A stretch of DNA of 64,000 bases from a virus (IMGVR_UViG_3300031998_000042:29158-93157); one strand, 5' to 3'; shown: positions 1,763-63,101, counted from the first letter of the stretch. The notes: a model not told the origin generated them from the sequence alone. Translations and numbers: made by a program.

Positions 1763-1772
1763 TCTACGGGGG
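1763..1772 (-). repeat. CCCCCGTAGA motif copy 1 (intergenic; inverted doublet with copy 2)
   Basis: ttcttctacgggggagc. Confidence 0.95.
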
Positions 1773-1791
1773 AGCTAATTTAAATAGTGCT

Positions 1792-1801
1792 TCCCCGTAG
1801 A
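1792..1801 (+). repeat. CCCCCGTAGA motif copy 2 (1 mismatch, TCCCCGTAGA)
   Basis: gcttccccgtagagaag. Confidence 0.85.
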
Positions 1802-1813
1802 GAAGTTAATAAT

Positions 1814-2437
1814 ATGAATGACTTTCAAGCAATTAATCAAATTATTGATGAGAGTATTCGTAATTCTTCTTATATAACTGTAGCAATATCAAGTGGAGTT
1901 TTTATATGTTATACTTTGATTGTTCAACTTATTAGTTTTTTCAAACAGAGGGATAAAAATAAACCTCTTATTGAAATGGCTACAGCTATAAAAGAAAATA
2001 CTGCAAACATTGTAAAGCTTAATGCAGTTTTAGATAAAATTTTTAAAGATGCTGAAAGAAAAGAAGCACATAAGTGTAAGAATACTATTGATTTAGGATT
2101 TAAAGCACTTGGTGCTAATATATCTCAAGAAATTGAATTAATTATAATTCATAATAATATTGAGAAAAATAGACAACTTATTCTAGATAATATAACTAAG
2201 TTAGTTTCTACAGAATATTATAAGTTGTATGCCATTCTTTCAGATTATGAAATAAACGAAACAAATGTTGCAAGAAGATTAAAAGAAGAATGGATTGATG
2301 AACTTACCAAAGCTATTATTGATATAGTATATGATGGACAAGATTCTATATCCCGAATTACTCAAATTAATAATAGAGTTGGAATATACATAAGTAAATA
2401 TTCTACTTATGTTTCAAATAAGACCTTTAACACATAA
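1814..2437 (+). CDS. Conserved crAss-like membrane-anchored protein (one N-terminal TM helix plus helical domain)
   Basis: ATG at 1814 after an AT-rich leader is preferred over the GTG at 1787; hydrophobic segment YITVAISSGVFICYTLIVQLISFF. Confidence 0.7.
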   Translation: MNDFQAINQIIDESIRNSSYITVAISSGVFICYTLIVQLISFFKQRDKNKPLIEMATAIKENTANIVKLNAVLDKIFKDAERKEAHKCKNTIDLGFKALGANISQEIELIIIHNNIEKNRQLILDNITKLVSTEYYKLYAILSDYEINETNVARRLKEEWIDELTKAIIDIVYDGQDSISRITQINNRVGIYISKYSTYVSNKTFNT

Positions 2438-2442
2438 CGTTT

Positions 2443-2679
2443 ATGTTGTATAAGTCAATAAATAAGTCAGCAATGCTTGACATTCTAGATGATAGAATGT
2501 TGGGCATTGCTGATTGTATTACAGTTCTATTTGAAGAAGGTTATATTCCAAACAAAAACAAAATAACTATTTTGGATTATACTTCTATTCTTATAGATGC
2601 TTACGAGAATATAGATGTTCTTTCTAAGGAACAACAAGATAAGTTAGATAGTCTGTATAATAAAGTTTTAAAACTATGA
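2443..2679 (+). CDS. Small structural protein (tail hub-like)
   Basis: 78-aa ORF packed tightly between neighbours; function from synteny only. Confidence 0.5.
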   Translation: MLYKSINKSAMLDILDDRMLGIADCITVLFEEGYIPNKNKITILDYTSILIDAYENIDVLSKEQQDKLDSLYNKVLKL

Positions 2680-3413
2680 GCAAACTTAAAGAAGTAGAAC
2701 TAGAATATGTATATGTTACAATTCCTGCTGACTATATTTGTGTATATCATCGTATTTTAGCAATGCTTGCTGATTATGGTGAAGAAATGCTCAAAGATTG
2801 TAAAGCATCTTGTACAGACAGAAATTCTAGTGTCATTGAATGTTATAATATGTTTAATGCTGCAGTTGCTGCTAGGAAACTTGGAAAAGAAAAACTTGCA
2901 GAAACTCTTATTAGGTATATTAAAGCTAAGATTAATCAAATATATCAAGGTCACGATAATTCAACTTCATTTATATTTCCTGTTGATGAAGATGGTCATA
3001 TTCAGGCACTTGTTTCTTGTGGTGAAAGACCTAAGTTTGAAATTGACCCTGATAATGGTGAATTATTTGAGCATAAATTTAATAATGGTTTTGATGAACA
3101 TTTCAGGTTAGGTCCAGAAGATAATAGTGCTCCAGATGGCACCCCCGTAGAAGAAAGTGGATTGGAAGTCCTCATTATTCCTACATATCATTATGGATTA
3201 CCTTGTGCTGATATTTATGCCAAATATAATGGAATTGAGATAGATATTAAAGAAACTACTTGTAGTCTTTATTTTGACGATGAACCTATTAATAGTTTTA
3301 CAGAAATAGATGATTTACAGGTTGGTGATCATAAATTTACAGTAGTTATTCAATATAATGGGGAAACTGCTGTTGATACAAAAGAATTATATTATGGAGG
3401 CAGTCAAGACTAA
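2676..3413 (+). CDS. Putative tail hub / fibre-attachment protein
   Basis: 245 aa; helical Cys-containing N-terminus (CKASC) and acidic Ig-like C-terminus; overlaps previous stop (ATGA). Confidence 0.5.
   Translation: MSKLKEVELEYVYVTIPADYICVYHRILAMLADYGEEMLKDCKASCTDRNSSVIECYNMFNAAVAARKLGKEKLAETLIRYIKAKINQIYQGHDNSTSFIFPVDEDGHIQALVSCGERPKFEIDPDNGELFEHKFNNGFDEHFRLGPEDNSAPDGTPVEESGLEVLIIPTYHYGLPCADIYAKYNGIEIDIKETTCSLYFDDEPINSFTEIDDLQVGDHKFTVVIQYNGETAVDTKELYYGGSQD
3142..3151 (+). repeat. CCCCCGTAGA motif copy 3 (in CDS, encodes TPVEE)
   Basis: ggcacccccgtagaagaaag. Confidence 0.95.
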
Positions 3414-3915
3414 TTTAGGTAAAGTTTCCATTAGTGTTGAAAAAGACTATTGGAATATCGATAAAGAATATGATAGATTGGTTATTACCGAACGTGCAAC
3501 AGATGGTAATGTATATTTAAGTAGAAAACCAGTACCTGCTGGAACACCTATTACAAATCGAGAATATTGGATTTGCTTTGGTAGACCTACTAATTCTGTT
3601 GTAACAGTAGTAAATGAACTTGGTAATAATCCAGAAGTAGCAATTGCTCAACAAGTTGTAACTAAGCAATTAAAAGATATTAAAAAACGTATCGATAAAT
3701 CCCTTGAAGATTTATATGATGCGATTTCAATGCTTAATCCTGAACAACAAGAAGCAATTGGTATTGCGCAAGAAGTTGTTAATTTAAGAAATCAATTACA
3801 TGGATATTCTCTTCTTAGCTGTACAGAAGCTGAGTATAATCAAATGATTCTAGATGAGGAAATTGATGAAAATACTCTTTACTTCATTGAAGAGGAAGAA
3901 GAAGAGCCTGTATAA
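3394..3915 (+). CDS. Tail-fibre-associated protein
   Basis: ATG 3394 (MEAVKTNLGKV). 'YLSRKPVPAG..ITNREYW' fibre N-terminal module and C-terminal 'TEAEY....IDENTLYFI' motif typical of Bacteroidetes phage fibres. Confidence 0.65.
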   Translation: MEAVKTNLGKVSISVEKDYWNIDKEYDRLVITERATDGNVYLSRKPVPAGTPITNREYWICFGRPTNSVVTVVNELGNNPEVAIAQQVVTKQLKDIKKRIDKSLEDLYDAISMLNPEQQEAIGIAQEVVNLRNQLHGYSLLSCTEAEYNQMILDEEIDENTLYFIEEEEEEPV

Positions 3916-3927
3916 AAAGTAAGTATT

Positions 3928-4071
3928 ATGACAGGATTAAAAGATTGGTCTGCGGTTAAACTTGGTAGTAAGACTATATCTGCTGTTTATAGAGGACTTA
4001 CTTTAGTTTGGATTGCAGTTTCTAAATATTGGAGAAGAAAAGATATTTGGAAAAGAAAAGAATTATGGTAA
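3928..4071 (+). CDS. Small Trp-rich fibre-associated protein (47 aa, not in ORF track)
   Basis: MTGLKDWSAVKLGSKTISAVYRGLTLVWIAVSKYWRRKDIWKRKELW; fills the gap between genes. Confidence 0.65.
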   Translation: MTGLKDWSAVKLGSKTISAVYRGLTLVWIAVSKYWRRKDIWKRKELW

Positions 4072-4090
4072 TAATTAAAATTAAATAATT

Positions 4091-8470: not shown

Positions 8471-8476
8471 TGAATT

Positions 8477-10891: not shown

Positions 10892-11209
10892 ATGGAAATA
10901 CTTAATAATATTATAGAAACTACACTTAATAGTTTTGATTTTACATTTTGTATTGTAGTTAATCTTCTCACTTATGTAATTATTAAACTTGTAGATGAAG
11001 CAAGAAAGAGTAAAACTAATATTTGGATTAAGAGAGCAATTCTACTCTTTGTCATTTCTTCTACGGGGGTGGTATATTATCTAGTTAATGAAGATGTAAA
11101 ACTTATCCTTAACAGTGCTATTCTTGCACCTGTATTTTGGTCTTGGCTTATGAAACCTTTATGTAAAAAGTTTAAGATTGATTATAAGGATATTGATTAT
11201 ATTAATTAA
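10892..11209 (+). CDS. Holin-like membrane protein
   Basis: 105 aa, about 3 hydrophobic segments, charged C-terminal tail. Confidence 0.55.
   Translation: MEILNNIIETTLNSFDFTFCIVVNLLTYVIIKLVDEARKSKTNIWIKRAILLFVISSTGVVYYLVNEDVKLILNSAILAPVFWSWLMKPLCKKFKIDYKDIDYIN
11060..11069 (-). repeat. CCCCCGTAGA motif copy 4 (in CDS, encodes SSTG)
   Basis: catttcttctacgggggtggt. Confidence 0.95.
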
Positions 11210-11373: not shown

Positions 11374-11383
11374 CCCCCGTAGA
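11374..11383 (+). repeat. CCCCCGTAGA motif copy 5 (intergenic)
   Basis: gacctcccccgtagaagaaag. Confidence 0.95.
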
Positions 11384-14534: not shown

Positions 14535-14544
14535 TCTACGGGGG
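14535..14544 (-). repeat. CCCCCGTAGA motif copy 6 (intergenic, inside a hairpin)
   Basis: cattccttctacgggggtgcc, enclosed by gagtgataac/gttatcactc inverted repeat. Confidence 0.95.
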
Positions 14545-14584: not shown

Positions 14585-15007
14585 ATGTATAACAAAAGTG
14601 CAGGTAGTTATGACGAAATTCCTGATGGAATGAAAGTCTATATAAATAATTATGGTTGTCATTTTAATAAAAAGCTTTGTAAAGAGGCTGTTAGTAGAAT
14701 GACAACAAGGAATAAACAAACTGGTAAAGAAGAACATATACAACCATATACAAGACAAGAAGTAGAAAATATGCTTAATGTTTATGGAGTTCGTATAGAA
14801 CGTAATAAACTATATGATGCTGTTTATGTAGCTAATATGTGTAAAGCAGATTTTCTTGGAAGTTCTATTACATCAGAAGAACATCTTTGTAAATATGTAA
14901 AAGATTTACTCGATGATGTTGATGCAGAAGAAGGATTTGTATTTAATCGTTTTTATGCAGATACTATGTTTATGAATTGTCCTATTGAATGGGATGATAT
15001 GATATGA
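14585..15007 (+). CDS. Conserved Bacteroidetes phage protein (CCC operon)
   Basis: 'Y...YGCHFNKKLC..AVS.M...YDAVYVANMCKADFLGSSI...PIEWDDMI' family pattern. Confidence 0.75.
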   Translation: MYNKSAGSYDEIPDGMKVYINNYGCHFNKKLCKEAVSRMTTRNKQTGKEEHIQPYTRQEVENMLNVYGVRIERNKLYDAVYVANMCKADFLGSSITSEEHLCKYVKDLLDDVDAEEGFVFNRFYADTMFMNCPIEWDDMI

Positions 15008-15405
15008 TTAAACAAGTAATAGATGTAAATGGTTATTGGGAGATTATAGTTTATTATAATGTAAACTATAATCTTTTTGATATTATTGTAGATGATATGG
15101 CTCAATCTAGCACCCCCGTAGAAGGAATGGATAGAGTCAAATATAACCTTTTTATTAAAGGTGCTAAAGCTGTTACTATAACTTTTAAAGATAGATATAT
15201 AAGTTATATTATCTTTAGAAATCATAAAACTAAAGAAGATTATATATCTTCTATTGTACATGAAGCAGAACACGTTAAAGAATCTATGCTAGAAAAATAT
15301 AATATTCTTAATTCAGGTGAACCTCCAGCATACACTATAGGATATATTGTTAAAGAACTTTATAGTGTTTTTAACAAATATGTAAGAGTGGATGCAGATT
15401 TATAA
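15004..15405 (+). CDS. Small HExxH zincin-like protein
   Basis: SIVHEAEHV plus downstream 'GEPPAY' glutamate. Confidence 0.6.
   Translation: MIKQVIDVNGYWEIIVYYNVNYNLFDIIVDDMAQSSTPVEGMDRVKYNLFIKGAKAVTITFKDRYISYIIFRNHKTKEDYISSIVHEAEHVKESMLEKYNILNSGEPPAYTIGYIVKELYSVFNKYVRVDADL
15113..15122 (+). repeat. CCCCCGTAGA motif copy 7 (in CDS, encodes TPVEG)
   Basis: agcacccccgtagaaggaatg. Confidence 0.95.
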
Positions 15406-15565: not shown

Positions 15566-16249
15566 ATGGCTTCTATTGCTCAACTTGTAAGTGAGTTTGC
15601 TCATTCACTTAAACAACCAAACAACAAAGCTCTTCGAGAGAATCTTAAACTTCTTATTATTCATACTCGAAATGAAGTTGTTCGTCGTAGTTATGAAAAT
15701 CATGGCTATGTAGATAAAGTTTTAACTCAACGTTTTAATGTAACTTTAACAGATGTTAATGATGGAGATATTAAACTTCCTCCAGAGTTAGATGGTGAAG
15801 TTATAAAGATTAAAAGAACATTACAAAAAGTACCAAGACCTGTTAGACTTACAAATAATCTTCCGTTTGATAGAGTAAGTACTGCTGGTTATCAGACTAA
15901 CAAAGAAATTCCATTTGTAAAAGAAACAACTGCTAGATTTAATTACGCTTTAGTAGGTATGTGTAGTTTACCTTCTTATGATTATATAAATGGTTATATT
16001 TATTTGTTCCCTCCTAAAAATAAATCTATTGATTTTAATAAAATTGTTATTGAAGGTGCATTTGAACATCCTAATTTTATTGAAAAAGAAAATAAAGAAG
16101 TTGATAAATATGATTTGATGTTAGATGAAAATGAGTGGCTTTTATCAGAAGATATGATAGGTCAAATAAAAGAAATTATATATAAAAGAGATTTACTCAA
16201 CACAGTGAGAGAAACTAACGAAATTCCTGAACAAATTAAATATAGTTAA
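15566..16249 (+). CDS. Tail ring protein
   Basis: 227 aa; 'YDYINGYIYL...IEGAFEHP' ring-protein pattern; crAss-like synteny. Confidence 0.6.
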   Translation: MASIAQLVSEFAHSLKQPNNKALRENLKLLIIHTRNEVVRRSYENHGYVDKVLTQRFNVTLTDVNDGDIKLPPELDGEVIKIKRTLQKVPRPVRLTNNLPFDRVSTAGYQTNKEIPFVKETTARFNYALVGMCSLPSYDYINGYIYLFPPKNKSIDFNKIVIEGAFEHPNFIEKENKEVDKYDLMLDENEWLLSEDMIGQIKEIIYKRDLLNTVRETNEIPEQIKYS

Positions 16250-16255: not shown

Positions 16256-17209
16256 ATGGCTATTCAAGAAAAACCTATCGGTTTAAAAGATTATCATAAA
16301 AGCATGCAAGCTTATTATACAGAACAGATTGAAAAAGCAGAAGATGAAATTGCCAATCTGACTACTGAAATGAATGTATTATACGATGAAATAAAGGAGA
16401 ATAAAGAAGTATATGCTAATGATTATAAAATTTATATCTTTAAATATAAAGAAATAGCTCAAAACAGATATATTGATGGTAGTTTGATAAGGTTTGCTAA
16501 AACTGCATATCTAAATAAAAAAGAAGAATATAAACTTACAGTTGAATTGTATCATCTTTTAAGATATGCTAAATTACAAGAAAAAATTTATAAACTTGAA
16601 AAAGATATAGTTTTCTATAACAAACTTGTTTCTTTAAATACAAAAGAATATACTGAGATACTTAGAGAATATTATAAACAATTACATAAATTTATGATTC
16701 TTAATGGTTATGGATATTCTTTAGGAGAAATTGGTTGGATTTGTATTAATAGATGTCATGTTAAGAAAACATTTAGAAGACTTATAGATTTCAAGGCTAC
16801 AAAAGAAAGAGAAAAGCAATTACTTGCAGAAGGTAAAAAAATATATAATAAAGATGAAGCCGAATGGTGTTTGAGAAATGGAATTGAATATCATGCCGAA
16901 GATAAAAGAGTATTTAAAGAAGATGAATATGTATATGAAGTTCCATTAATTGATTCTAAAATTCCAGGAGGTTCAGATTTTAAATTAGAGTTAATAAACT
17001 ATCGAGGTGGAGATACAAAAGGTAAGTTGCATGATGAATTGTTACAAGAAACAAATAATGATACAACAAAAATATGTGAACTTGACATAGACCTTAGAAC
17101 CAAGATAGTTTTATGTAATAGAGCTGATAAATTAATATATAATAATTTTATTAGAAATGAACATCAAACGTCAATTAACGCTAGCAAGGCTACTCGCGAA
17201 GGTAAGTAA
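16256..17209 (+). CDS. Conserved protein, probable IHF/HU-like DNA-binding domain with N-terminal coiled coil
   Basis: Position between ring genes as in crAss-like phages; 'LNGYGYSLGEIGWICI' resembles the HU beta arm. Confidence 0.45.
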   Translation: MAIQEKPIGLKDYHKSMQAYYTEQIEKAEDEIANLTTEMNVLYDEIKENKEVYANDYKIYIFKYKEIAQNRYIDGSLIRFAKTAYLNKKEEYKLTVELYHLLRYAKLQEKIYKLEKDIVFYNKLVSLNTKEYTEILREYYKQLHKFMILNGYGYSLGEIGWICINRCHVKKTFRRLIDFKATKEREKQLLAEGKKIYNKDEAEWCLRNGIEYHAEDKRVFKEDEYVYEVPLIDSKIPGGSDFKLELINYRGGDTKGKLHDELLQETNNDTTKICELDIDLRTKIVLCNRADKLIYNNFIRNEHQTSINASKATREGK

Positions 17210-22247: not shown

Positions 22248-23759
22248 ATGGCTAGATGTTTAAGAACAGCAGGTGGCAGACCTAAAGCTTGGATTGGTGC
22301 TGCCATCGGATTAGGTACACAAATTATTGGTGGACTTATAAATAAAAATGCACAAGAAGAACAAGCTCGTGCTGCACAAAGAGCACAAGAACAACAAGAT
22401 GCAATAAATTTAGCATTAAATAAAGCTCAACAAATGAAACTTACCCAAAATGCTCAAAAAGCATATGAAGAACAATTTAGAGTTCCTTATGCTAAAGGTG
22501 GTCGTAAAAGACTTAGAAGTGCAATAGGTATTACAGATGGAGGAGTAGCAACACCTGTGGGAGATAGCACATTCCTTCTACGGGGGAGCACTCATAATCA
22601 AGTTAATGAAAGTGGGAAAACTGGTATTGGTATAAATGTGGGAGGTAAAGAAATTGAAGCAGAAAATGGTGAATTGGTTGATGTTAATAACGGCAATCTT
22701 AGAGTGTTTAGTAACAGCTTATCTATTCCTGTTATGACTAGAGATGGAGTTATGTATATGACTCCGTCTGATGCTGTTCTTGCTGGATATAATAAAAATA
22801 GAATTTTTAATGAACAGCAAAGAATGAATGGAAATAGTCATGGAGAAGGAGGAAGAGCAAAAGCTGCACTTGGTGCAAGTTTTGGTACGGCTGATTATAT
22901 AGGATTAGGTACTAATATTTTAGGTTCTATTCTTTCACAAACTATTAATCGTAAAGGTCTTTCTGGTCTTAGTAAATATGCACCTAGTAGACCTATTCCA
23001 TATGTTGCTGGTAAATTAATTACTAATTATAATATCAATCCTCAACTTTCTAATCTCGAAAGAAGTAGACTTCAGGCTTATAGAAGTATTGATAGAGATA
23101 CTGCAAGTTCGGTTGCTGCTAATGAAAAAAGAAATGCAATTAATGTTAATACAACATTAGCAGAAAATGAACTTTATAATAAGAAATATCAAACTGAAGC
23201 AGAAATGCTTAATAAAGATACTCTTAATCAGCAAGAAGTTGCAAATAAATCTATTGCTGCTTATAATGATTGGAGAGATAAATATAATAACTATATGGCA
23301 GCACTTGCGGGTGCTAAATCTGAGTCTAATGTTGCAATGATACAAGGTATCGGTAATTCTATTGGTAATTTCTTGCAACAAGGAATTGATAGACATCAAA
23401 TGGAACTTAATAGAAGAGCATATCTTGCAACAGCAGATAAAGGCAATGATGAAATTATGGCGGCTTATGGACTATTCAATAATAAAGAACTTAGATTTCT
23501 TTATGAAAAAGCTCTTAAAGATGGAAATGATGATAAAGCTAAATATTATTACGACCTTTTACCAAAAAGAATTCAAAGAAAATATACTCCACTTACTCCA
23601 ATTCCTATGGAAAGTGTAAATTTTCCATCAATATCATTAAAAGAAATTGAACCTTTAAACGTTGGATTTAATATTCCATCTTTAAGTTATGAAAATGATT
23701 TAGCTAGTGGAATTTATAAAAATTCTTATGGTTGGAGAAAAAGAAATGGTTTAATTTAA
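22248..23759 (+). CDS. Ejected cargo protein 1 (C1-like)
   Basis: N-terminal 'WIGAAIGLGTQIIGGL' Gly-rich helix, AQ-rich coil, 'EIEAENGE' motif; follows muzzle. Confidence 0.65.
   Translation: MARCLRTAGGRPKAWIGAAIGLGTQIIGGLINKNAQEEQARAAQRAQEQQDAINLALNKAQQMKLTQNAQKAYEEQFRVPYAKGGRKRLRSAIGITDGGVATPVGDSTFLLRGSTHNQVNESGKTGIGINVGGKEIEAENGELVDVNNGNLRVFSNSLSIPVMTRDGVMYMTPSDAVLAGYNKNRIFNEQQRMNGNSHGEGGRAKAALGASFGTADYIGLGTNILGSILSQTINRKGLSGLSKYAPSRPIPYVAGKLITNYNINPQLSNLERSRLQAYRSIDRDTASSVAANEKRNAINVNTTLAENELYNKKYQTEAEMLNKDTLNQQEVANKSIAAYNDWRDKYNNYMAALAGAKSESNVAMIQGIGNSIGNFLQQGIDRHQMELNRRAYLATADKGNDEIMAAYGLFNNKELRFLYEKALKDGNDDKAKYYYDLLPKRIQRKYTPLTPIPMESVNFPSISLKEIEPLNVGFNIPSLSYENDLASGIYKNSYGWRKRNGLI
22577..22586 (-). 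repeat. CCCCCGTAGA motif copy 8 (in CDS, encodes LLRGS)
   Basis: cattccttctacgggggagca. Confidence 0.95.
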
Positions 23760-39500: not shown

Positions 39501-42500
39501 CTTATTCTTCACAAACTACTGCACATATTCTTGATGCCATTAAGTCTGGTAATATTCCCAATGTTAATGATTTAACATTCCAAGTTTATAAGACTATTGT
39601 CGATGTTGGTTCTAATTATGATACTGCTGTTTCATTTATGATGCAGCCTGGTGTTCGTCGTATCGTTGAGGCATATAACTCTTCTAAGTCTATTTATGCT
39701 AAAGACAATAATAGAAATTATATTGGAACAGCAATTAGAGAAATAGCTACAGAACTTGGTATCGATGTTGGTAAAAATGCTAAAATTGATGACATTCTTG
39801 CAGAAATTAATTCTGAATATGAGGATATTATTAATGCAATATTTGGTGTAGAAAAGACAGATTTAGCATTAAATGATGATGATATTGGTAATCTTGCTTT
39901 AAATCCTGAACTTCAACTTTCTCGTCTACAAGGTGTTGAATCTTTTGCTGAAGGCACCCCCGTAGAAGAAATGGATGAAAACAGAGATGCTGATACTATT
40001 GCACTTATTTATGACTTATGTGTTATTCTTCAATATAACAGACTTAATAATCTTGCTAGAAAAGTTGGTGATTTAGCACGAGTATGTAATCCTGATAAAT
40101 TTGGTGCAAAGCAAACAATATTTGCAACTAATGATATTTTTGATCAAATTGCTACATTTGATGAACAAGGTAATATTGAAGGTGGTTTATTAGCAGATGA
40201 AAATTTCCCATTACTTGTTAATGGTAAACATTTTATTGACGCTATTTATCCTGGTGTAAGAGATGGTTTGGATGCTTTCATACAATCTGATACTACTCCA
40301 GAGGCTAGTGCTTATCCTCCATTATTTACATTCCTTAAATATGCTACAGCAAGTTCTATTAAAGTAAATAAGAAATTATTTGTTACTCAAGAAACTAACT
40401 TTGTAGAACATATTAGAAGTTTGCAAAGTCTTCTTGCAGGTGGTCAAAGAATAGATGAAAAGACTTATAAAGCATTTCAAAATTACTTTATTTCTTATTT
40501 ATCTAAACGTGCTAGATTTATTAATCAACCTCTTCATTTTAGTATAGAACCTGGTGGTAAGTATGGTTTTGATTATCTTAGTAAAGATAATGGAACCAAA
40601 AATGAAGATGAATTTGAAAGAGTCTATGGCTATGGTTGTAGACCTGATATGAAGATTGAAATTGAAGAGGATTATTATGATGAAGAAGAATCTAAGAAAC
40701 AAGGTAAAGCCGTTTATACTAAAGGAACTCGTCTTGTAGAATTTACTGTTAAGGATATTAATAATCCTACTCAAGAAGAAATTAATTTGTTTGAAAAATT
40801 CTCTCCTGCTCAGAAAGTTTATTGGTTGCAACAGAATCTTAGAGAAGGTGAAAAGGGAATACTTGAACATATTAGAACAAGTCTTTTTAATGATAGGATG
40901 AGTCGTAAGAGTAAGTATGGTGCTCAAACTATGGAATTTGCAGAAACTACTCAAGATAAAGAAACTCTTTATGCAGAATTTGAACTTGGTTTTTCTAGCA
41001 AAAATCCTCTTATTGCTCTTACTCATGCAGATATTCTTAAATATGCCTTTATTATAGAAGGTTATAAAATAGGTAGAAATAATGTTTCTAAACTTATTAA
41101 GAATTCTGTACTTGTTAATGGTGGCAAAATTTACGGTACTAATATTGTTAATGATATGAACCGTGAAATGGCACTTCGTGATGAAACTCTTGCAGGAAAA
41201 GAATTTGATGCTCTTAAAGAAGATTTCTTACGTAGTCATCCAAACATTAAAGGACTTAATAGAAGATATGTTAAATGGACTAAGAATGGTTATGACCTTA
41301 TTCGTAGAGCTTCAGGTATTATTCAAATAGGTAATACTAAAGAAGGAGAAGAGATTCTTGAAAAGTATGGATTTGGTTATAGAACTACTCGTGGGGATTT
41401 TAAAACTAATAAGTACGGTAATCTTACTTTTGGTAATAAAACAACTCTCTATAAACTTATTAATGATAAAAATGGTTCTTATTTCTTAATTCCTCTTAAT
41501 AAACTTGAAGAAAATGAGAATGGAGAATGGTCTTCTAATCCTGCAAATAATGTATATCCTGCACAAGATTATTATCTGAATGTTATAGACAATTGGATTA
41601 GAGATAAAGAAAAAGACCAAGTATTTACTGCTGATAAGTTTAAAGAATCTGCTGCTAAAGTAAATGTTGAAGAATATAAGGCACCTAAACAAAAAGAACT
41701 TAGTACAAAGATGCCTATTCCTCTTACCAAAGCAGATAAAGATGCTGGTTTTTATGATCATCTTGGTAAAGAAGTTGCTAATTGGCTGAAGAATGATAAA
41801 TCTCGTAAACTCATTATAGTTAATGGCGGTTTAGATTCTCATATTAAAGCTAATGGTGAGGAATATGGATTAACTGATGGTATTGTTGTTACTGAAAAAG
41901 ATAATAATGGTAACGATGTTAAACGTGCTCTTGGTACATTTAAGATTTATCGCCATAAAGATACAAAATGGCTTATCAAGACTTATGTATTAGGAGATAA
42001 TGCTAAACGTGATATATCTAAACTTCCTCAAGATAAACAAGATATTGTTACTAAATGTCGTGAAATGGGTATTCAAAGTACTTCATTTAAAGACATTTAT
42101 GTGGTTGAACCTACGAATAATGAATCTATGACTGAAGGTGAACAAGAAGACCAAGAAATGTTGAGTGCTATTCTTGATAAAGCCCTGTCACAACAAGTTA
42201 AAGGTGTAAATAGGCGTAGTGCAACATCCGATGAAAGAGCAAGATTTGTTAGAAAGACATTTAATGATAAAGGTGTTACATCTAAATTAGATAGTGTTAC
42301 AAAACATAACACCGATATTGTTATGGAAATGGCTAAATATCTTAGTGAAACTTGTGGAGAAATTCTTAGTGATTTAAATCATTTCTGTCAAGATGCTGAA
42401 GGTAAATGGCATAGTGTCTTAGATAAAGAAAGTTTAGAATTAATTAAGAAAGATAAGAATGAACGTAAACGTTATGGAGAACTTATTCTTAATGCAAAAG

Positions 42501-45500
42501 CTATTGAAAAAGAATTTGGTCTTATTAAAGATGTGGATGTTCAATCTGAAGATCCTAATATTCAAGGTTATCTCAATAAAATTAAATCTTCTATAGATTC
42601 TATTAGAAATTCAACACTTGTTAATCAGGCATTTGATTTATATGCTGAAAATTATCTTGGTGAACTTTCTAAAAATCCACTTATTCAACAACATATGATT
42701 AGTATTCTTGATGGTTTCTGGAAGAGTAACTGGGCTGAGTCTGTATTTAATGATATACAAGAAGCTCCAAATCCAATTATTCAGGTTACTATGAAAGAAT
42801 TTATGAAGGATATGCGTTCTGCACAAATGAATGCAAGAAAACGTATAGACGAATTTGGTAAATTTATGAGTGACCTTAGAGCAGAAGCTGCTAAGAATGG
42901 TCAATCTATTGATTTCAGTCATATAATCGATGAATATGGTAGATTTATTCAAGAATATACTGATAAGTTCTTAGAGGATAGAGATAGATTGCAAGAAGAT
43001 GTTAGAAAAGCAAAAGAAGAATTTGGTGAAAATTCTGTTGAACATCTTAGAGCTAGACTTATTTATAATGAGTGGAAAGCAGAAAATCTTGAACAACCTC
43101 TTGTAAAAGAATATTACGATGAAGTAAATGCTCTTGAGAGAAAGATTCTCTTTGGTACTCCTACAGAAGATGAAGTAACACATAGAATTATTAATGTTGG
43201 TGCAAGCCCTCATTTGTTCGCTTATTATGAAAAATTAAGAAGAGAACGTAATAATATCTTACATAGTCTTTCTGATGATACTCCAAATGCAGAATTGGAT
43301 AATCGTCTTGATGAAATCAATAAAGAACTTGATTTAATTCTTGGTGATTTTTATTATAACGAAAAAACTGGTACTCTTGAAGAGAAAACTGAAACATACG
43401 GTAATACTCTTGAAGATGCTATGAAGAGTTATTTCCATACTGATATTATAAATGAATATGTTGAAAAACGTAGAGAAATTGAAAACAAATATTATGGAAG
43501 AAAAGCTAAATTTGGATTTGAAGAAGAAGTAGAACGTAATGCCAAAATTGTACAGGCTTTTGAATCTACTTATCCTGAAGCTGTACTTCAAAATAAGCCA
43601 GATTATATTAAAGCTAAAACATGGTTAAGAAGAAATGCTATTCGTAAACCTTCTGTAAAAGGAGAATGGGCTAAAGAATTAAGAGATGCTTATGAAACTT
43701 TAGGTCGTAAAGATGACACAGATACAACTAGTACAAGAAATGTTCTTTGGGATAAAACTAAAACTCATGGAAGAATTGATGAATTTGGTGTATTTGATGC
43801 CACTTATATGACTGATGAGGAAATAGACCAACTTAAAGCTAAAGAAACTCAACAATTTAGAAATCATGATGATAATCCTTTATCTGATAGAACATTAATT
43901 AGTAATGGTGCCCCAGATAAGACTGTATATTCTAGAGAATTTTATAAAGGATTTACTGGAGGTACAGGTAAAGATAATGCAGAATGGTTTAAAGTTGTAA
44001 CTGAAATTAATGATTTACTTGCCCCATATTATGATAGTGCAAATGAACGTGTAAATCTTCAACTTATTAAAAACGATAAAGAAGGAATTGAAATACTTCG
44101 CAAACTTACTAAACTTTATGATCGTCTTGCAAATATTAATAAAACTGAAAGTAAAGATGATAAGAAAAAACGTTATAAATGGATTGAAGAAAATGTAGAA
44201 TTTGCTATAAATGAAGCTCTTTATGAAGCAGATAGAATTTGGGCTGAAGGATTACCTAAAGACCAATTTAGAACTGCTATTCTTGGTTTAATTAAAACTG
44301 TAGATGCTAATTGGAATGTTGGTCCTAATAGTTTCTTATATGGTTATATTAAACCTAAAGGAGAAACATTTAAAGAGTATGGTACAGGTAAAGAAATTAA
44401 ATCTGTAGATGAAAAGAAAACTAAAGCTCTTGCAACTATTGCTAAATACACAGAACGAGTTCCTACTAAATATTATAGTGAAAAGTTCTATGAGATGAGT
44501 CAAAAAGGTGAAGAAGAGTTTCAAAAATGGTTTATTGCAAATCATATTTATAATCCTTATACTCATGGTTATCAACCTCTTCGCTGTTGGACTAGTGTAA
44601 GATATGGTAGTGATTTGTCTTATGACTATTATCCATCTTATGCTCAAAAAGAACGTTATATTAGGGATGGTAAATATGATGAAAATGATCCTACTCAAAT
44701 AGGTGTAACTGTTAATTTAACAAAAGAAGAACAAGAGAAATATGAAGCTAAAAAGAAAGAAGGTGAAGACAAATCTGCTTATATTAAGCGTCTTAGAGAT
44801 ACAGCAGATAGTGTAGAAGCTGAAGGCAAGCATAAAGCAGCTGAAGAACTTAGACATCTTGCAGAAGTAGCAGAAACTGGTTATGATAGTAAAACTGACT
44901 TTGTAAACAAAAATTATAAAGAAGGTGGACACAGTATTAATTATAGAAGAGAAGGTCATAACTATGATAGAACTATAAATGCAAATGAATATGAACTTCG
45001 TGCTAGAGACTACATGAGAGAAGTTCTTATGAGTCTTGCTCATACTAAAGAATCTCGTAACTATCTCGAAAAAGGTTGGTTACCCTCTCGTTCTTCTACG
45101 GGGGAGCATGATTTAAAATATTGGGCTAAACAACTTGCAGGACTTGTTGGTTTTGAAACTTTACATAATGGTAAAGAAGATTTCTATGAGGATATAGAAT
45201 ATTATAAGGATAGACCTATTCCAATGCCTATGCTTAATCAAGTTAAAGGTAAAGGTGTGGTTACAAACGATATGAGTTATCCAAAACGAGAAGATTATGA
45301 TACAGAAGAAGAATTTATTAGAAAGAAAGAAGAATATGCTGCTAAACAAAAAGAAGTAGATAAACAAAATCTTGAAATTCATAAAGCTCTTCATGATAAA
45401 GATTATGAGTCTGTGATTAAAGAATTTATTCTTAAAGCCGCACAATATAATGCTGTACAAGATAATAAGTATAAACTTTTCCTTGCACAACAACTTATTA

Positions 45501-47403: not shown

Positions 47404-47413
47404 CCCCCGTAGA
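47404..47413 (+). repeat. CCCCCGTAGA motif copy 15 (intergenic, overlapping terminator base)
   Basis: agctcccccgtagagaag. Confidence 0.95.
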
Positions 47414-49034: not shown

Positions 49035-49090
49035 CATATTTATAGATATTTAACATAAAAATTTCATCACTAATACTACCATCCATTTCT

Positions 49091-49100
49091 TCTACGGGGG
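49091..49100 (-). repeat. CCCCCGTAGA motif copy 16 (intergenic; inverted doublet with copy 17)
   Basis: ccatttcttctacgggggtggtc. Confidence 0.95.
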
Positions 49101-49146
49101 TGGTCGTTTGAGCACTATTAAACTCGTTAATAGGTTCAAAACAGCT

Positions 49147-49156
49147 CCCCCGTAGA
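49147..49156 (+). repeat. CCCCCGTAGA motif copy 17 (intergenic)
   Basis: agctcccccgtagaagagtgg. Confidence 0.95.
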
Positions 49157-49176
49157 AGAGTGGAACACTCATCTCA

Positions 49177-54250: not shown

Positions 54251-54270
54251 AGTTAATAAGTTTTAGACTG

Positions 54271-54365: not shown

Positions 54366-54375
54366 CCCCCGTAGA
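54366..54375 (+). repeat. CCCCCGTAGA motif copy 18 (intergenic)
   Basis: tacctcccccgtagaagaatgg. Confidence 0.95.
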
Positions 54376-56637: not shown

Positions 56638-57129
56638 TTAATTTACAGGTTTAAAATTAACAGTTAAAAGACTAAGTTTAACTTTCTTTTCTCTAATCTT
56701 ACGTTCAATAGCAGTTTCACGTTTAGGCTTACCATCAACATTCTTTCTACGGGGGAGCTTTTGTTTGAGTCCTTGCTCAAACTTCTTTTTGCCCTTTTCA
56801 CCGTCATACCAAATAGGAGGATTAAGTTTCTCATATTCAATATTACGTTGATGTAGTTCAATAAGTTCAAGTAAAAGTTGTTCTTTTAGAGTTTCCTCCA
56901 TTTGTTCTGCAATATAAATTGCAGCACTCATCTCTCTACGATACGGATAACCAATAGTTTGCATTGGTCGCATACCATTATCATATACTCTTGAACAATC
57001 TAAATAAAAAAGCTGCTTTCTAAAAGCAGCCTCTAAACTTCCATTCTCTTTAATGGAATTTTCTACCATTCTTAAAGCAATGTCGTCAAGTTCAATCATA
57101 TATTGATTTATACTACTTAAATCTACCAT
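56638..57129 (-). CDS. Hypothetical protein with basic C-terminus (163 aa)
   Basis: ORF in replication operon. Confidence 0.7.
   Translation of the reverse strand: MVDLSSINQYMIELDDIALRMVENSIKENGSLEAAFRKQLFYLDCSRVYDNGMRPMQTIGYPYRREMSAAIYIAEQMEETLKEQLLLELIELHQRNIEYEKLNPPIWYDGEKGKKKFEQGLKQKLPRRKNVDGKPKRETAIERKIREKKVKLSLLTVNFKPVN
56746..56755 (-). repeat. CCCCCGTAGA motif copy 19 (in CDS, encodes LPRRK)
   Basis: cattctttctacgggggagct. Confidence 0.95.
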
Positions 57130-57563
57130 ATTGTTCTCTTAAAAATAACGCATCTTTTAGGTTTTCCTAAAAGACCATGAAAATATTGTACAATAAGTTC
57201 AGGTCTAAATGTTTCCCAAACTTTAAAATTACCATCATAACTACAACTATGATTAGCATAATTATAATTTGCAGGAATAATTGATGAATTACCAGCAAAT
57301 AAATCATCATTATATTTTATAGTTTCATAATCTTCACCACCCGTTTTGAAATCCATTTCACCATAAAAACAAATACTGGTTTTAGGAATCTTTATAACTT
57401 TTTCATTAATAGATAGTGAAATTATATCAACGTGTTTATCTTCTATAAGTTCTTCAACACTTTCATCAATCTCTGCAATATAGAATGCTTTACGAGCTTT
57501 ACCATCACTAAAATGGCACATTACTCGAGGTGAGGAAATCGTCGTCAAAATAACTGTCTTCAT
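57123..57563 (-). CDS. Hypothetical protein (146 aa)
   Basis: ORF overlapping primase end. Confidence 0.7.
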   Translation of the reverse strand: MKTVILTTISSPRVMCHFSDGKARKAFYIAEIDESVEELIEDKHVDIISLSINEKVIKIPKTSICFYGEMDFKTGGEDYETIKYNDDLFAGNSSIIPANYNYANHSCSYDGNFKVWETFRPELIVQYFHGLLGKPKRCVIFKRTIW

Positions 57564-58737
57564 TGTCTTGTTTGAATTTAAGTTCTACATACTTTAGAGT
57601 ATCTTTAATAAATACATTAATTTCTTCCTTTGTAAACTTTTCGTGAAGGTCTGCAAAATCCTTACATTTAAGATTAGGTAGACCTAATTCACCTCTAGTA
57701 ATAAATAAATATGGTATGTTATATACTTCTTCTAGATATTTAGCACATTTTCTACCAGTCCTATCAAAATCCATAAGACTTAATATCATACCAGTACTTT
57801 TAAGTTTACCAGCTAAATAATTATATTCATTTTGTTTAAGATTATAACTTTCACTCGGTAAATTAATAATACCAATATTCAGTTTTTCATTGCTAGCCCC
57901 CCCGTAGAGAGGATATGCAAAGAGATGACTACCTATGCTTAATCTATCTTTACTAGACTTAGTAATAAGTATATAATCATAATTATCAAGTTCAAGATTT
58001 AAAAGACCTTCTAGAACATTAGAATTAGTAATAAATTTTAACTGTTTTTCTCTATTTCTAAGAGGAAAATAAAGTTTAAAAAGATATATACCATGTTTAT
58101 CTTGTCCTATTGTATAAGCATAACAAGGGTCTTTTTTAGAATAATAATATTTAGGAACAGTATCAACACCACGGTTGATATAATATTGGTCAACAGGAAT
58201 TACAAAGTGTGTATTAAGATAATTCAAATTAATATTCCATTTACCCCACACTTCTTTATCTTGTTGATTCCAACTTCTAGGTACTATTTCAATAATAGCT
58301 CTTCTAGATTTTCCTTTAACAATAGCATTTTGAATAGTTATTTGAACATTCGGGTCAGTTTCCTTTCCATCAATAATGTCAGAAAATGTATAAGCTATAT
58401 GTTTAAGAATAAAGTAAAAGTCTTGTTTATTATTAGGTTCAATCTTACGTTCATATACAATACTTAATACATAACCAACACAATCGTAGCAATCACCAAA
58501 AAACCCAAAACCACCAAAATCCCTAACCTTTAATCTACCTTTGATATTATATTGAATACCCATACTTTTATTAAAATCATCGTCTCTAAATACAGAGGTG
58601 ATAAGAGCATTGTTTTTAATACAATATTCAACTGTTTCCATAGGTATATCTAAATATTTAGAAACTATAAGTTCTTGACTTATTTTAGATTCTATATATT
58701 CTTTAGTAAGAGTATTAGTAAGTATTGTACGTTTCAT
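57508..58737 (-). CDS. DnaG-like primase
   Basis: N-terminal 'SVFRDD....DFGG..GDC' module; TOPRIM 'ITKSSKD' and 'DFDRTG'; 'KDFAD'. Confidence 0.8.
   Translation of the reverse strand: MKRTILTNTLTKEYIESKISQELIVSKYLDIPMETVEYCIKNNALITSVFRDDDFNKSMGIQYNIKGRLKVRDFGGFGFFGDCYDCVGYVLSIVYERKIEPNNKQDFYFILKHIAYTFSDIIDGKETDPNVQITIQNAIVKGKSRRAIIEIVPRSWNQQDKEVWGKWNINLNYLNTHFVIPVDQYYINRGVDTVPKYYYSKKDPCYAYTIGQDKHGIYLFKLYFPLRNREKQLKFITNSNVLEGLLNLELDNYDYILITKSSKDRLSIGSHLFAYPLYGGASNEKLNIGIINLPSESYNLKQNEYNYLAGKLKSTGMILSLMDFDRTGRKCAKYLEEVYNIPYLFITRGELGLPNLKCKDFADLHEKFTKEEINVFIKDTLKYVELKFKQDNEDSYFDDDFLTSSNVPF
57899..57908 (+). repeat. CCCCCGTAGA motif copy 20 (in primase CDS, encodes LYGG)
   Basis: agcccccccgtagagagg. 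Confidence 0.95.
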
Positions 58738-58744
58738 AAGATAT

Positions 58745-58789: not shown

Positions 58790-58812
58790 CGTTTTTCAGG
58801 AGTTCTTATATA

Positions 58813-59754: not shown

Positions 59755-59782
59755 AACTTAATTAAGTTTTTAAATGATTATA

Positions 59783-59817
59783 AAACAATAAAGGGGATGA
59801 GTTATTCACTCATCCCC
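59783..59817 (-). terminator. Hairpin/terminator
   Basis: ggggatgagt / actcatcccc stem with A-rich flank. Confidence 0.7.
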
Positions 59818-59849
59818 GACAGTTTTAAGAAAACGTGATTGATACTAAA

Positions 59850-60635
59850 TTATTCACTCTTCTCGCCACGAACGATAGGGTCATTATCTTCAACAAACTC
59901 AATAGGATAAGCTACATAAGCTTCACCACGATACTCACACTGGATTGGAGTGTCAAGAAGAACGTTAAATACACGATTCTTCTTAGTCTTGTTCTCACCA
60001 AGGTCAGCCTTAAGTTTGTTCCAAATAGCAGTATCAGTAAAGTTCAGAGGACAACCAATACCTGTAGCAGTACCTGTAGTAGCAGTCTTAGAACCTTCTG
60101 CATCATGATACTTAGGAGATTCAACATCATCAACTGAGATGAGAGCAATCAGAGTATCATCATCTGCGTCTACACCACCATTACGCTCAATAAGAGCATC
60201 ACGATTAGCATCGAGAATTTCCTTACCATGTTCAGCAATAAAATTCTCCTTATCTTCCTTAGTGAAACGAACAGAAGCCATGATAGGATTACCCTTATCA
60301 TCATATTTCTTAAGACCCTTTGCAATAGCATATACAGTAAGGTCTTCAAGAAGCTGACGCTGACCCTCTACAGAGTTAATATCAATATTGTTTTCAGCAG
60401 CATAAGCAACAATATCATCAGCCTTATTCTGAATCAGTTGCTCAATAGTCTGAGCATTATTGATAAACATAACATTCTCACCTACTGCAATACCAAGAGC
60501 CTTAGAAACTGCAGAAGTAATCATAAACTTACCCTGAGTACTATTTGCAATCAGCTGTGGGAGAGCATTAATAGTAGATGATTTTTGACCTGCGTTCATT
60601 ACACTAAATCCACCGAATTTAATACCAGTTTTCAT
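59850..60635 (-). CDS. Conserved hypothetical protein, highly expressed-type codon bias
   Basis: 261 aa in replication module. Confidence 0.75.
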   Translation of the reverse strand: MKTGIKFGGFSVMNAGQKSSTINALPQLIANSTQGKFMITSAVSKALGIAVGENVMFINNAQTIEQLIQNKADDIVAYAAENNIDINSVEGQRQLLEDLTVYAIAKGLKKYDDKGNPIMASVRFTKEDKENFIAEHGKEILDANRDALIERNGGVDADDDTLIALISVDDVESPKYHDAEGSKTATTGTATGIGCPLNFTDTAIWNKLKADLGENKTKKNRVFNVLLDTPIQCEYRGEAYVAYPIEFVEDNDPIVRGEKSE

Positions 60636-60713
60636 AACTTTAATTGGTTTTAAAAATTAATAAATAAGAAAATTAATAATATGTTGTTTAGAACAACGAA
60701 TTTCATTTTTACC

Positions 60714-61634
60714 TTAATTTTGAGTTTCCTCAATAATTTCATAGTCAGAAGGAGCAAGGTCAACCCCTTCAACTATTTTAAGTTCTCCACTTTCCATACA
60801 ACCCATCAGAACATCATCACCAATATCTCTTGCACCTAAAGTGAAGGCACGATGACCAATCAATATGCGAGCATATTTTTTATAAGTATCTTTAGTAAAT
60901 AAATCAGCAGTTTGTGCTTCAGTATAACTAAAATGACTTATAACTTGCATTACTCGTTCTTTACCATTCCCCAAATTGAAATATCTTGTAAACTTATATT
61001 CAGTAACAAAATCTATAGGCTGAGCAGGTATTCTTATAACAGGAAATTTACCTTCAGCAGCAAGCTTTTGTGCATGAATACGATTAATAGCTTTTTCACA
61101 TTTATCAGATACTTCAAATTCGTTATAAATTCTATTACTTAGGTCTGTAAACCATTGCACTGGATAAATACCAACAGTATCATCTTTTGTAGCCTCTAAA
61201 GCTTCTTTAGCAGTACGACACTTAACACAATATTGTGGAATCTGTGTTTCTAGATAAATCGTATTGCCATCAGTATACTGATACTGAGGAACATAATCTT
61301 TAGTGCATTCCCAAGTTATTCCTGCCCTTAGCAATAACGATTTAACTATATGAATATCAACACCAGTTTTGCCATTAATAACATGGATATGTTCGGTACA
61401 ACTTGAAAAAGGAAGATTTAAATCTTGAGCACGTGCAAGAATAGCTAAACCATCTTGAACAGATTTAATACCACTTTTATCACTTTGTATATATCTCTTT
61501 AGAAAAGTTTCAGCACTTGCTAATTGCTTTTCATCAAGAAGATTAAGAACACCAAAACCAGAATTAAATTCATTGTGTCTTGTAGTCAATGCACGACTAC
61601 CACCACCATTATTAGGTTTTGTATTATCGTTCAT
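60714..61634 (-). CDS. RecT/Redbeta-like single-strand annealing protein (putative)
   Basis: 'AQDLNLPF....HIHVINGK' and 'YKKYAR.LI.HRA....AR'. Confidence 0.6.
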   Translation of the reverse strand: MNDNTKPNNGGGSRALTTRHNEFNSGFGVLNLLDEKQLASAETFLKRYIQSDKSGIKSVQDGLAILARAQDLNLPFSSCTEHIHVINGKTGVDIHIVKSLLLRAGITWECTKDYVPQYQYTDGNTIYLETQIPQYCVKCRTAKEALEATKDDTVGIYPVQWFTDLSNRIYNEFEVSDKCEKAINRIHAQKLAAEGKFPVIRIPAQPIDFVTEYKFTRYFNLGNGKERVMQVISHFSYTEAQTADLFTKDTYKKYARILIGHRAFTLGARDIGDDVLMGCMESGELKIVEGVDLAPSDYEIIEETQN

Positions 61635-61660
61635 TAAGTCAAAGAGCGTTTAATTGTTTT

Positions 61661-61697
61661 ACGATGCAAATATACGACATTTATTTCAATCTACAAT
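61661..61697 (-). promoter_or_regulatory. Bacteroidetes sigma-A-type promoter
   Basis: TATATTTG -7 box with ATTG 19 nt upstream; 15-bp identity with the dut promoter. Confidence 0.65.
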
Positions 61698-63101
61698 AAT
61701 AAAATCGGAATTATTTTCACTTATTATCTGATTTTCAAATTTCTTAACTATTTTGTGCGTTTCAGTTTCCAATCTTTCCTCCAATTTCTTTTCCTCTAAT
61801 GAGTTTTTAACAAATAGTGTATATACTTTCAGGGGAGAAGAAACATCAAGTTTAGATAATCTATAAAGATAATTTTCAACATTTTCACACTGGGAAGAAG
61901 TAATTATAATAATATCTACTTTAATATTAAGTGTTTTATCTGGAGCATTATTTGTACTAAGCACTCTTATATTATCATTGTTAAATAGACTTTCAAATAA
62001 TGTCTTTTGTGCTTGAGCACCAAGCTCTCTAGGTTGTCCTTTCTTAACACCACTTTTATAAAGTATAGGCTTACCTCTCATATCTAAAGCAGGAATGTTT
62101 TCAACTTTATCATGATAATTTCCACAAATATCAGCTTCAGAACAATTATTTAAATATTGTGTAACTTTATTTGCAAAATCAGCACGTTTATTGATAACAA
62201 GAACTTTAGCATCAGGATTAGCAGTTATTATTTCTAATACTTTTTCTAGTTTATCATCAAAATCAGATAAGAAATTACATCTATTCCTAATTATATCATA
62301 AGTTTGTTTTGCTCTATCATGTAGATGATTAGGATTATACAATTCATCTACTTGTCTATTATATTCAAAAGACATATCAAGAGCGTCAGACCAACCATTA
62401 TTTTGTGCAATTTGATAACAGACTTCTATTGCAGAAATATTCAAAGAAGTATTACCAACTCGACATTGATCCATAATACCAAAATTACCAAATATGTTAA
62501 GTGAAGTTTCAATATATTTGTTATAATACTTTAAAAGTTTTAATTGTTCACTATCTTCTTTAATGGTAATTGGCACAAACTCCTCTTCTACAGGGGAGCT
62601 AAGTCGAAGTTGTTCAATATCTTCTTGTTTAAAATCTTCAAGAATAGTACAATATTTATATAATGTACCCATATCTTGAACAGAAAGTCTATTATTAATT
62701 ACAACAAGTTTAAATTTAGAACGAAGAAATTTTTGAAATATATCTTCATCAAGTTTCTTTGAATGATAAAGAACACATAACATTGGTGGATAATAATTAT
62801 CCATCTTAGTAACAAAAGATTCTGTAAGAACTTTAATATTCTTACTATCTAATAATTTTACAAATTCTTCATCATTTTCATCACCCTGATGTGTGATAAA
62901 ATCAACAATTTGTGCTCGTTCAACAAAATCACTAGTAATTATATTTACTTTTGTCGAAGGACTTTTATTATAAATTCCTTGTAGAATGCCAAGAATTAAA
63001 TATCTATCATCGACAGTTGAAGGTATAATTGCAGTACCAACACCTTTATTAACTCGCCAATGTTCAATAGCATTTACAAAAAGATTTTCAATAGTTTTCA
63101 T
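61686..63101 (-). CDS. SF2 helicase-like protein with degenerate ATPase motifs
   Basis: Helicase C-domain layout (KVLVI...; IRVLSTN...VDIIII), but no Walker A GKT/S or DExx seen. Confidence 0.6.
   Translation of the reverse strand: MKTIENLFVNAIEHWRVNKGVGTAIIPSTVDDRYLILGILQGIYNKSPSTKVNIITSDFVERAQIVDFITHQGDENDEEFVKLLDSKNIKVLTESFVTKMDNYYPPMLCVLYHSKKLDEDIFQKFLRSKFKLVVINNRLSVQDMGTLYKYCTILEDFKQEDIEQLRLSSPVEEEFVPITIKEDSEQLKLLKYYNKYIETSLNIFGNFGIMDQCRVGNTSLNISAIEVCYQIAQNNGWSDALDMSFEYNRQVDELYNPNHLHDRAKQTYDIIRNRCNFLSDFDDKLEKVLEIITANPDAKVLVINKRADFANKVTQYLNNCSEADICGNYHDKVENIPALDMRGKPILYKSGVKKGQPRELGAQAQKTLFESLFNNDNIRVLSTNNAPDKTLNIKVDIIIITSSQCENVENYLYRLSKLDVSSPLKVYTLFVKNSLEEKKLEERLETETHKIVKKFENQIISENNSDFIIVD
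62587..62596 (-). repeat. CCCCCGTAGA motif copy 21 (1 mismatch; in CDS, encodes SPVEE)
   Basis: cctcttctacaggggagct. Confidence 0.8.

Follow-up and report, generated by a model that had tools for sequence, protein, structure and literature searches.

Why should successive copies of a short word point alternately one way and the other along a virus genome? The question was raised by a 64,000-nucleotide stretch of phage DNA, IMGVR_UViG_3300031998_000042:29158-93157 (hereafter the window), which is the final 64 kb of one 93,157-bp contig. Judged by its terminase, the phage is a member of Crassvirales and is Intestiviridae-like (78% identity to crAssphage ctcc615, 74% to cr271_1 and 56% to prototypical crAssphage). 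An initial annotation of the window had noticed that neighbouring copies of the word are mostly inverted and had proposed that the sites work as oriented pairs dividing the genome into domains. From the whole contig and its relatives we conclude that the alternation is probably a by-product of a separate, evenly spaced array of copies on each strand, the word being a putative signal that would act in one orientation and strand by strand.

The word is asymmetric and 20 bases long, roughly (c)aTTTCT-TCTACGGGGG-WGC with the core TCTACGGGGG, and was recovered from two closely spaced inverted doublets, 1763/1792 and 49091/49147. Allowing at most one mismatch, the window contains 21 occurrences of the core, where shuffled sequence would give 0.26. 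In the studied genome (G000) the word takes the form aCATTTCT-TCTACGGGGG-AGCT, about 20 nt, and the scores of a genome-wide scan with a position weight matrix (PWM) were sharply bimodal: 31 sites reached 20 bits or more, and nothing scored from 7 up to 20 bits. The 31 sites comprise 16 plus and 15 minus copies, at a density of one copy per 3 kb. Within the window the scan added no further copies and reproduced the coordinates annotated initially.

The comparison covered 14 genomes, namely G000, twelve whole IMG/VR contigs carrying the word and crAssphage ZA, each scanned with a PWM of its own. Every one of them held 18-33 sites, well over the shuffled maxima, with both strands balanced in most relatives and a conserved stretch of 17-23 nt. 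The word is spelled in lineage dialects, prototypical crAssphage having 30-31 copies of CCATCCTCYACGGGGRGT, and an exact-pattern scan of IMG/VR found it in many contigs of ~90 kb. Searching bacterial and archaeal genomes with a 14-mer of the word gave, among the matches listed, scattered single hits in unrelated phyla with no enrichment; neither a host repeat nor a host Chi was seen among them, and the word appears private to the phage. The sole "bacterial" contig with two exact 14-mer copies among these matches, JAFRAK010000011.1 (L179; 93,767 bp, from a "Bacilli bacterium" metagenome-assembled genome of goat duodenum), is as long as a crAss-like genome and probably belongs to such a phage, having been sorted into a bacterial genome during binning.

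On any one strand the copies were found to be evenly spaced. With a mean same-strand gap of 6-8 kb, the normalised gaps pooled over the 14 genomes had a coefficient of variation (CV) of 0.49, and both extremes were depleted: gaps under a quarter of the mean made up 1.9%, where random placement would give 22%, and 4% exceeded twice the mean against 13.5% expected. Maximum same-strand gaps were 7-10 kb where about 13 kb was expected. Regular spacing was detected in 19 of the 28 strand classes at P<0.01 and in 21 at P<0.05, plus-strand gaps within the window had a CV of 0.28, and site clusters gave CVs of 0.40-0.70 against 0.80 under the null; a gap in the family-B DNA polymerase (PolB) gene at the contig ends slightly affects one circular gap. 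The two sets are balanced and interleaved in both genome arms, with no replication strand bias of the Chi type, which bears out the earlier remark that the motif differs from co-oriented signals such as Chi and the FtsK-orienting polar sequences (KOPS). Relative to each other, copies on opposite strands were placed independently in 7 genomes and closer than chance in 7, G000 included; such closeness is expected if both arrays compete for few permissive intergenic spots.

The orientations in the window read + - - + - + - + - + - + - + - + - - + - +. It was confirmed that 18 of the 20 neighbouring pairs are opposite (binomial tail 2.0e-4 against p=0.5), that both exceptions (1792/3142 and 49147/54366) come right after tight inverted doublets, and that the alternating run continues through the point at 47.4 kb where gene direction switches. 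Taken over the whole genome the alternation is not perfect: in the other 29 kb, 6 of 10 pairs were inverted (the junction pair included), giving 24 of 30 for the genome. Counting each doublet as its first copy, which had made the run perfect, was a post-hoc choice and leaves the alternation elsewhere in the genome broken. The 13 relatives, prototypical crAssphage among them, alternated at 62-82% of all neighbours, not strictly, and the pooled rate over the 14 genomes was 256/350 = 0.731. Alternation is a family-wide statistical tendency and not a rule. Such copies beyond the window that break the pattern, and relatives that alternate loosely, go part of the way towards the refutation that the initial annotation had itself named.

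This tendency depends on distance. Among the pooled neighbours, 71 of 72 lying within 600 bp of each other were inverted, as were 142 of 180 (79%) at 0.6-5 kb, while beyond 5 kb the share was 43 of 98 (44%), the chance level. For all neighbours more than 600 bp apart it was 185/278 = 66.5%, ranging per genome from 52 to 80%; it exceeded 50% in all 14 genomes and was near 50% in G004 and G013.

One reading of these figures is that alternation itself is selected and that neighbouring copies form oriented pairs serving as loop anchors or domain boundaries. The run in the window, the excess of inverted far neighbours in every genome and the 79% at 0.6-5 kb are in its favour, and the low alternation of the 5-7 kb bin (0.39) looks as if an alternating lattice had lost a middle site. 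However, the other 29 kb and every relative break the alternation, neighbours beyond 5 kb are at chance, and independent arrays give the exact observed rate, as described below. Moreover, the long gaps between copies of the same orientation contain no decayed sites, nothing having scored at 7-20 bits, and the close pairs have no fixed geometry (38 convergent, 33 divergent). A hidden decayed site that would restore the alternation was sought, and the CTACGGGG match at genome position 18979 was rejected, scoring below 7 bits, about chance. Nothing in the sequence data requires loop anchoring, and we hold the division into domains by oriented pairs, as proposed in the initial annotation, to be unsupported and quite improbable.

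Another explanation would do without any strand-specific function: close direct repeats may have been purged as deletion-prone, so that the survivors look alternating. The near-complete inversion of close pairs agrees with it, and homologues of RecT and of a PD-(D/E)XK nuclease are encoded by the phage. Yet the avoidance of same-strand neighbours reaches several kb, far past the range expected for recombination between 20-bp repeats, the depletion of long gaps is left unexplained by purging, and there is no account of why the word is kept. Purging may add to the short-range effect; as the explanation of the pattern it is unlikely.

The account by two evenly spaced arrays was put into numbers through a simulation of two independent arrays with gamma-distributed gaps (CV 0.5). 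Two interleaved regular arrays yield mostly alternating neighbours and always-inverted close ones, and the simulated alternation was 0.731 overall and 0.99 within 600 bp, the observed values being 0.731 and 0.99. Since the simulation matches the observed rate, no coupling between neighbours is needed for the alternation. At a per-pair rate of 0.731, the 18 of 20 in the window has P=0.065 and the 24 of 30 in the genome P=0.27. What is new here is the explicit test of alternation, made up of its distance dependence, a negative test of the flanks (given below) and the quantitative fit of independent arrays.

Several points weigh against this account. The fit by distance is imperfect, close doublets amounting to 21% against 9% predicted, and the alternation of 0.39 in the 5-7 kb bin compares with 0.61 predicted. 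The 14 genomes share ancestry and some of their sites are orthologous, and the pooled P values overstate their independence. To describe the sites as two regular arrays or as a single regular array whose alternation is noisy comes in part to the same thing; the former is preferred because so many inverted pairs lie very close together, because alternation varies with distance and because the simulation fits exactly. As regards the nature of a strand-wise signal, an unstructured priming word of 17-23 nt would be unusual, primase signals being 3-8 nt long or structured hairpins for single-strand initiation (ssi). Further, the nick-associated motifs of other phages lie on one strand and are unevenly spread (PMC11780129), whereas the word in G000 is even and split 16 to 15 between the strands.

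The shared ancestry also raises the question whether the perfect run in the window is only chance laid upon phylogenetic inertia, orientation being uninformative. Many sites are orthologous, so the genomes are not independent samples, and far-neighbour alternation comes near 50% in two of them. This is nevertheless very improbable, as all 14 genomes lie above 50%, even spacing on a strand is pronounced inside individual genomes whose sets of sites differ (n=18-33), and close pairs are inverted in 71 of 72 cases.

To see on what the selection acts, the 31 copies in G000 are given one by one with their gene context, taken from a greedy map of open reading frames (ORFs; lengths in amino acids, aa). 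Coordinates are those of the core, in the window unless stated otherwise.

1763-1772, plus strand: first arm of an intergenic hairpin doublet, core with 0 mismatches, between ORFs of 345 and 207 aa
1792-1801, minus strand: second arm of that doublet, core TCTACGGGGA with 1 mismatch; 1755-1812 forms a hairpin (-13.2 kcal/mol, z -5.7)
3142-3151, minus strand: in a 245-aa ORF, antisense, peptide TPVE; the aligned place in G003 is without a copy
11060-11069, plus strand: core match, left-hand copy of an inverted pair with a spacing of 314 bp
11374-11383, minus strand: core match, right member of the same pair
14535-14544, plus strand: intergenic, 41 nt upstream of a DUF7841 ORF, without local structure
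15113-15122, minus strand: core match in a 133-aa ORF, antisense
22577-22586, plus strand: in a 503-aa ORF, sense, LLRGS; copy at the corresponding position in G003 and G005 (44-47% aa identity)
28835-28844, minus strand: core match TCTACGGGCG in a 2365-aa ORF, antisense
30216-30225, plus strand: core match in the 2365-aa ORF, sense, STGG
32500-32509, minus strand: in the 2365-aa ORF, antisense, SSPVEE; aligned copy in 4 of 4 relatives at 29-34% aa identity
36714-36723, plus strand: in a 4601-aa RNA polymerase-like ORF, sense, FYGGA; aligned copy in 4 of 4 relatives
39957-39966, minus strand: in the 4601-aa ORF, antisense, TPVEE; aligned copy in 3 of 4 relatives
45095-45104, plus strand: in the 4601-aa ORF, sense, STGE, lineage-specific; 4 of 4 relatives align without a copy and without an indel
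47404-47413, minus strand: at the junction where the arms converge, 15 nt past the stop codon that ends the 4601-aa ORF, without local structure
49091-49100, plus strand: core match, first arm of the second intergenic hairpin doublet
49147-49156, minus strand: second arm of the 49091 doublet; 49083-49165 folds at -22.9 kcal/mol, z -7.9
54366-54375, minus strand: core match, intergenic, sense, 116 nt upstream of a minus-strand 108-aa ORF
56746-56755, plus strand: in a minus-strand 163-aa ORF, antisense, LPRR; aligned copy in G003 and G004
57899-57908, minus strand: in the primase gene (57508-58737), sense, LYGGA; aligned copy in 3 relatives
62587-62596, plus strand: TCTACAGGGG, in the SNF2-like ATPase gene (61686-63101), antisense, SSPVEE; aligned copy in 4 of 4 relatives
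Outside the window, genome positions from the PWM (ten copies): 404 (plus), 437 (minus), 9098 (minus), 9240 (plus), 13606 (plus)
Outside the window, continued: 16868 (minus), 17054 (plus), 23370 (plus), 24329 (minus), 24839 (plus)

Relative to genes, 17 of these copies are sense and 14 antisense, and they fall in several reading frames. ORFs of 100 aa or more leave 15% of the genome uncovered, and 15 of the 31 sites fall in that part (P=9e-6); the other 16 lie inside such ORFs. In-gene sites are kept at the aligned position in relatives where the surrounding protein is 29-50% identical (for example 32500, 36714, 39957, 57899, 62587 and 22577), and being held in place at such low protein identity marks them as a selected signal at the level of DNA. 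Alignments to relatives lacking a copy revealed in-gene gain without an indel at 45095 and 3142; the former must have arisen by replacement and not by insertion. The flanks of the word are not conserved. Taken together, the alignments indicate a DNA-level signal under strong purifying selection and specific in its orientation.

Other kinds of signal were considered and rejected. A peptide motif is ruled out by the several frames, both orientations and the intergenic copies, and an mRNA promoter or terminator as the main role by the mixture of sense and antisense copies and by those inside giant ORFs. For the crAss-like phage phi14:2, no promoter motif is known for the virion RNA polymerase, its early transcripts have no common motif, and its middle and late genes have host-type promoters (bioRxiv 10.1101/2020.03.07.982082). 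Comparison of the word with Rfam families and tRNAs gave no match, and a known RNA family or tRNA fragment is likewise ruled out.

Structure was considered in connection with the suggestion that neighbouring inverted copies pair over long distances, forming stems either as RNA or as single-stranded DNA. The three tight doublets do fold as strong hairpins (z -5.3 to -7.9). Single sites, however, had no local fold (z +1.0, +1.2 and -0.5), and the flanks of adjacent inverted copies were no more alike than those of other pairs: in G000 the identity was 21.25 of 38 positions against 21.16 for non-adjacent pairs, and permutation across five genomes gave p 0.46-0.99. The alternating run crosses the switch in transcription direction, copies of both senses occur in nearly equal number (17 and 14), and no Rfam family was matched. 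The idea of long-range stems, raised in the initial annotation for single-stranded DNA, is extremely unlikely.

The inverted pairs invite comparison with the traces, or the terminal inverted repeats, of some small mobile element resembling miniature inverted-repeat transposable elements (MITEs) or REPINs, with copies born as inverted pairs. In G000 such pairs flank segments of 29-578 bp. The widest, 14535/15113 (578 bp apart), brackets a small DUF7841 ORF (14585-15007), with the right copy inside the next ORF; it resembles a cassette but fits the pattern of two arrays sharing permissive spots. Against a mobile origin stand the in-gene sites that arose without indels (45095 and 3142), the conservation of positions over deep divergence, the single units without a palindrome, the regular rather than clustered spacing and the lack of a transposase, of the RAYT/IS200 type or otherwise, among the roughly 40 proteins scanned (part of the ORFs). 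We give this origin hardly any credence.

The word was also compared with known dispersed signals. Nick-associated motifs in phages (T5, phiKMV-like phages, Pseudomonas phage tf and Rembedalsseter; WACTRTGAC) are 9-19 nt long with about 5-15 dispersed copies (PMC11780129). Like the present word, they are asymmetric, private to the phage, dispersed mostly in coding sequence and shared by relatives with little nucleotide identity; the difference in strand use and evenness has been noted above. Our searches found no paper giving the motif strings in a phage context and none describing the word, and on nicks or motifs in crAss-like phages nothing relevant except this comparator for tf-like phages.

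Chi, as read by RecBCD or AddAB, is similar in being orientation-dependent, dispersed, met at bounded intervals by a tracking enzyme and tolerant of coding sequence; it differs in being 5-8 nt long, in belonging to the host genome and in its skew to one strand per replichore, whereas the crAss word has 17-23 nt and is private to the phage. The DNA uptake sequences (DUS) of Neisseria and uptake signal sequences (USS) of Pasteurellaceae share with it a conserved core with weaker flanks, equal orientations, fairly even spacing, in-gene copies in tolerated frames and intergenic inverted pairs forming hairpins. They serve competence in cellular genomes, occur about once per kb and work in either orientation, for which reason regular spacing on each strand would not be expected of them.

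The plasmid RSF1010 offers a strand-wise parallel, as its ssiA and ssiB sites with the primase RepB' are strand-specific signals lying inverted on opposite strands, each strand being primed independently; these sites are structured, ~40 nt long and confined to a single origin, while those of the phage are unstructured and number about 30 per genome. Short repeats of alternating orientation are also known from shufflon sfx sites and from arrays of bacterial interspersed mosaic elements (BIME) or repetitive extragenic palindromes (REP). Those are tightly clustered, outside genes or at one locus, and recombinase-dependent or palindromic, unlike the crAss sites, which are non-palindromic and sit in essential genes. 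An inversion system was looked for between G000 and 8 relatives, and the high-scoring segment pairs from blastn were collinear and in one orientation, with no inverted segment between copies, by which a shufflon-like system is excluded on an evolutionary time scale. The only stretch aligned in the opposite orientation, ~100 bp at L097:6257-6365, was non-syntenic in G005 and G007 and could be some short mobile or repetitive element that has nothing to do with the motif. The word is filed under none of the families of nick motifs, Chi, uptake sequences and ssi sites, because it fails a defining feature in each.

A similar arrangement was seen beyond this family. In Bacteroides phage crAss001 (Steigviridae; MH675552.1, first 100 kb; L101+L102), ACGGGG is absent from both strands, where ~10 occurrences are estimated from base composition, and the word yCTTCTGGAG is enriched, with 38 copies of CTTCTGGA, 18 times the expected number. 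Along each strand its copies are again spaced evenly (minus CV 0.46, P=0.0008; plus CV 0.55, P=0.047). The Steigviridae word CTTCTGGAG may be an analogous signal in another dialect.

As to function, the word would act in cis at the level of DNA and be recognised in a single orientation and on a single strand; its reader would be an enzyme encoded by the phage that either moves along DNA or works on one strand. With such a reader, each strand needs its own set of sites at bounded intervals. Copies on opposite strands are placed independently, or share permissive intergenic spots, where they give rise to inverted doublets capable of forming hairpins. Strand-specific priming sites for the phage primase or replisome and programmed sites of single-strand nicking are the two preferred roles, each put forward tentatively, and nicks or priming sites on alternating strands had been among the options named in the initial annotation; after them would come a Chi-like stop or loading signal for a phage exonuclease with RecT or for the SNF2 translocase. 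The candidate readers encoded are a primase, an SF1 (Dda-like) helicase, PolB, the SNF2-like ATPase, RecT, the PD-(D/E)XK nuclease and an ATP-dependent ligase.

Some other proteins were set aside as readers. The HNH endonuclease and RepL of p-crAssphage have no homologue in G000, and the case for "IHF-like" phage proteins (after integration host factor, IHF) as binders was weakened, one of the two ORFs concerned matching a Pfam structural family. This ORF, at 15566-16249 of the window and IHF/histone-like in the crAssphage ZA annotation, matches CrAss_Ring_2, tail ring protein 2 (E=1e-50), which makes its older IHF label doubtful. Its neighbour at 16256-17209 matched nothing in Pfam, and neither ORF is an obvious reader of the motif.

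In crAssphage ZA a divergent doublet stands 170-420 nt upstream of each of the two RepL-like genes (L099:28208-29404 and L100:46486-47632), and its copies have in common a longer, GC-rich tail (AGTATAGCGGAGCGAAGCGG-like). In G000 the 404/437 doublet is just upstream of the PolB start. The PolB gene is split by the contig ends (window 63098-64000 and L097:1-387), residues 481-743 of crAssphage PolB aligning at the contig end and 1-121 at the contig start; the contig is either a circular permutation without about 1.1 kb in PolB or it carries a PolB gene with an insert.

The model of spacing on each strand replaces a speculative genome architecture of paired sites with one that is simpler and makes quantitative predictions. 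It is conceivable, and suggested here with reserve, that the crAss-like phages of Intestiviridae, to which the most abundant phage of the human gut belongs, replicate or process their DNA through ~15 sequence-specified events per strand, nicks or primase starts at a 20-nt word every 6-8 kb, carried out by a dedicated protein co-evolving with the dialect. If true, this would be a genome-wide, two-strand version of the nicks of T5 and tf type or of plasmid ssi sites. The word and its dialects also provide a compact sequence signature by which Intestiviridae contigs can be recognised and classified. The crAss-like phages are the dominant human gut viruses, and very little is understood of how their DNA is replicated, recombined or packaged; a deeply conserved word kept at regular intervals on each strand even inside the giant RNA polymerase genes is a direct handle on their DNA machinery.

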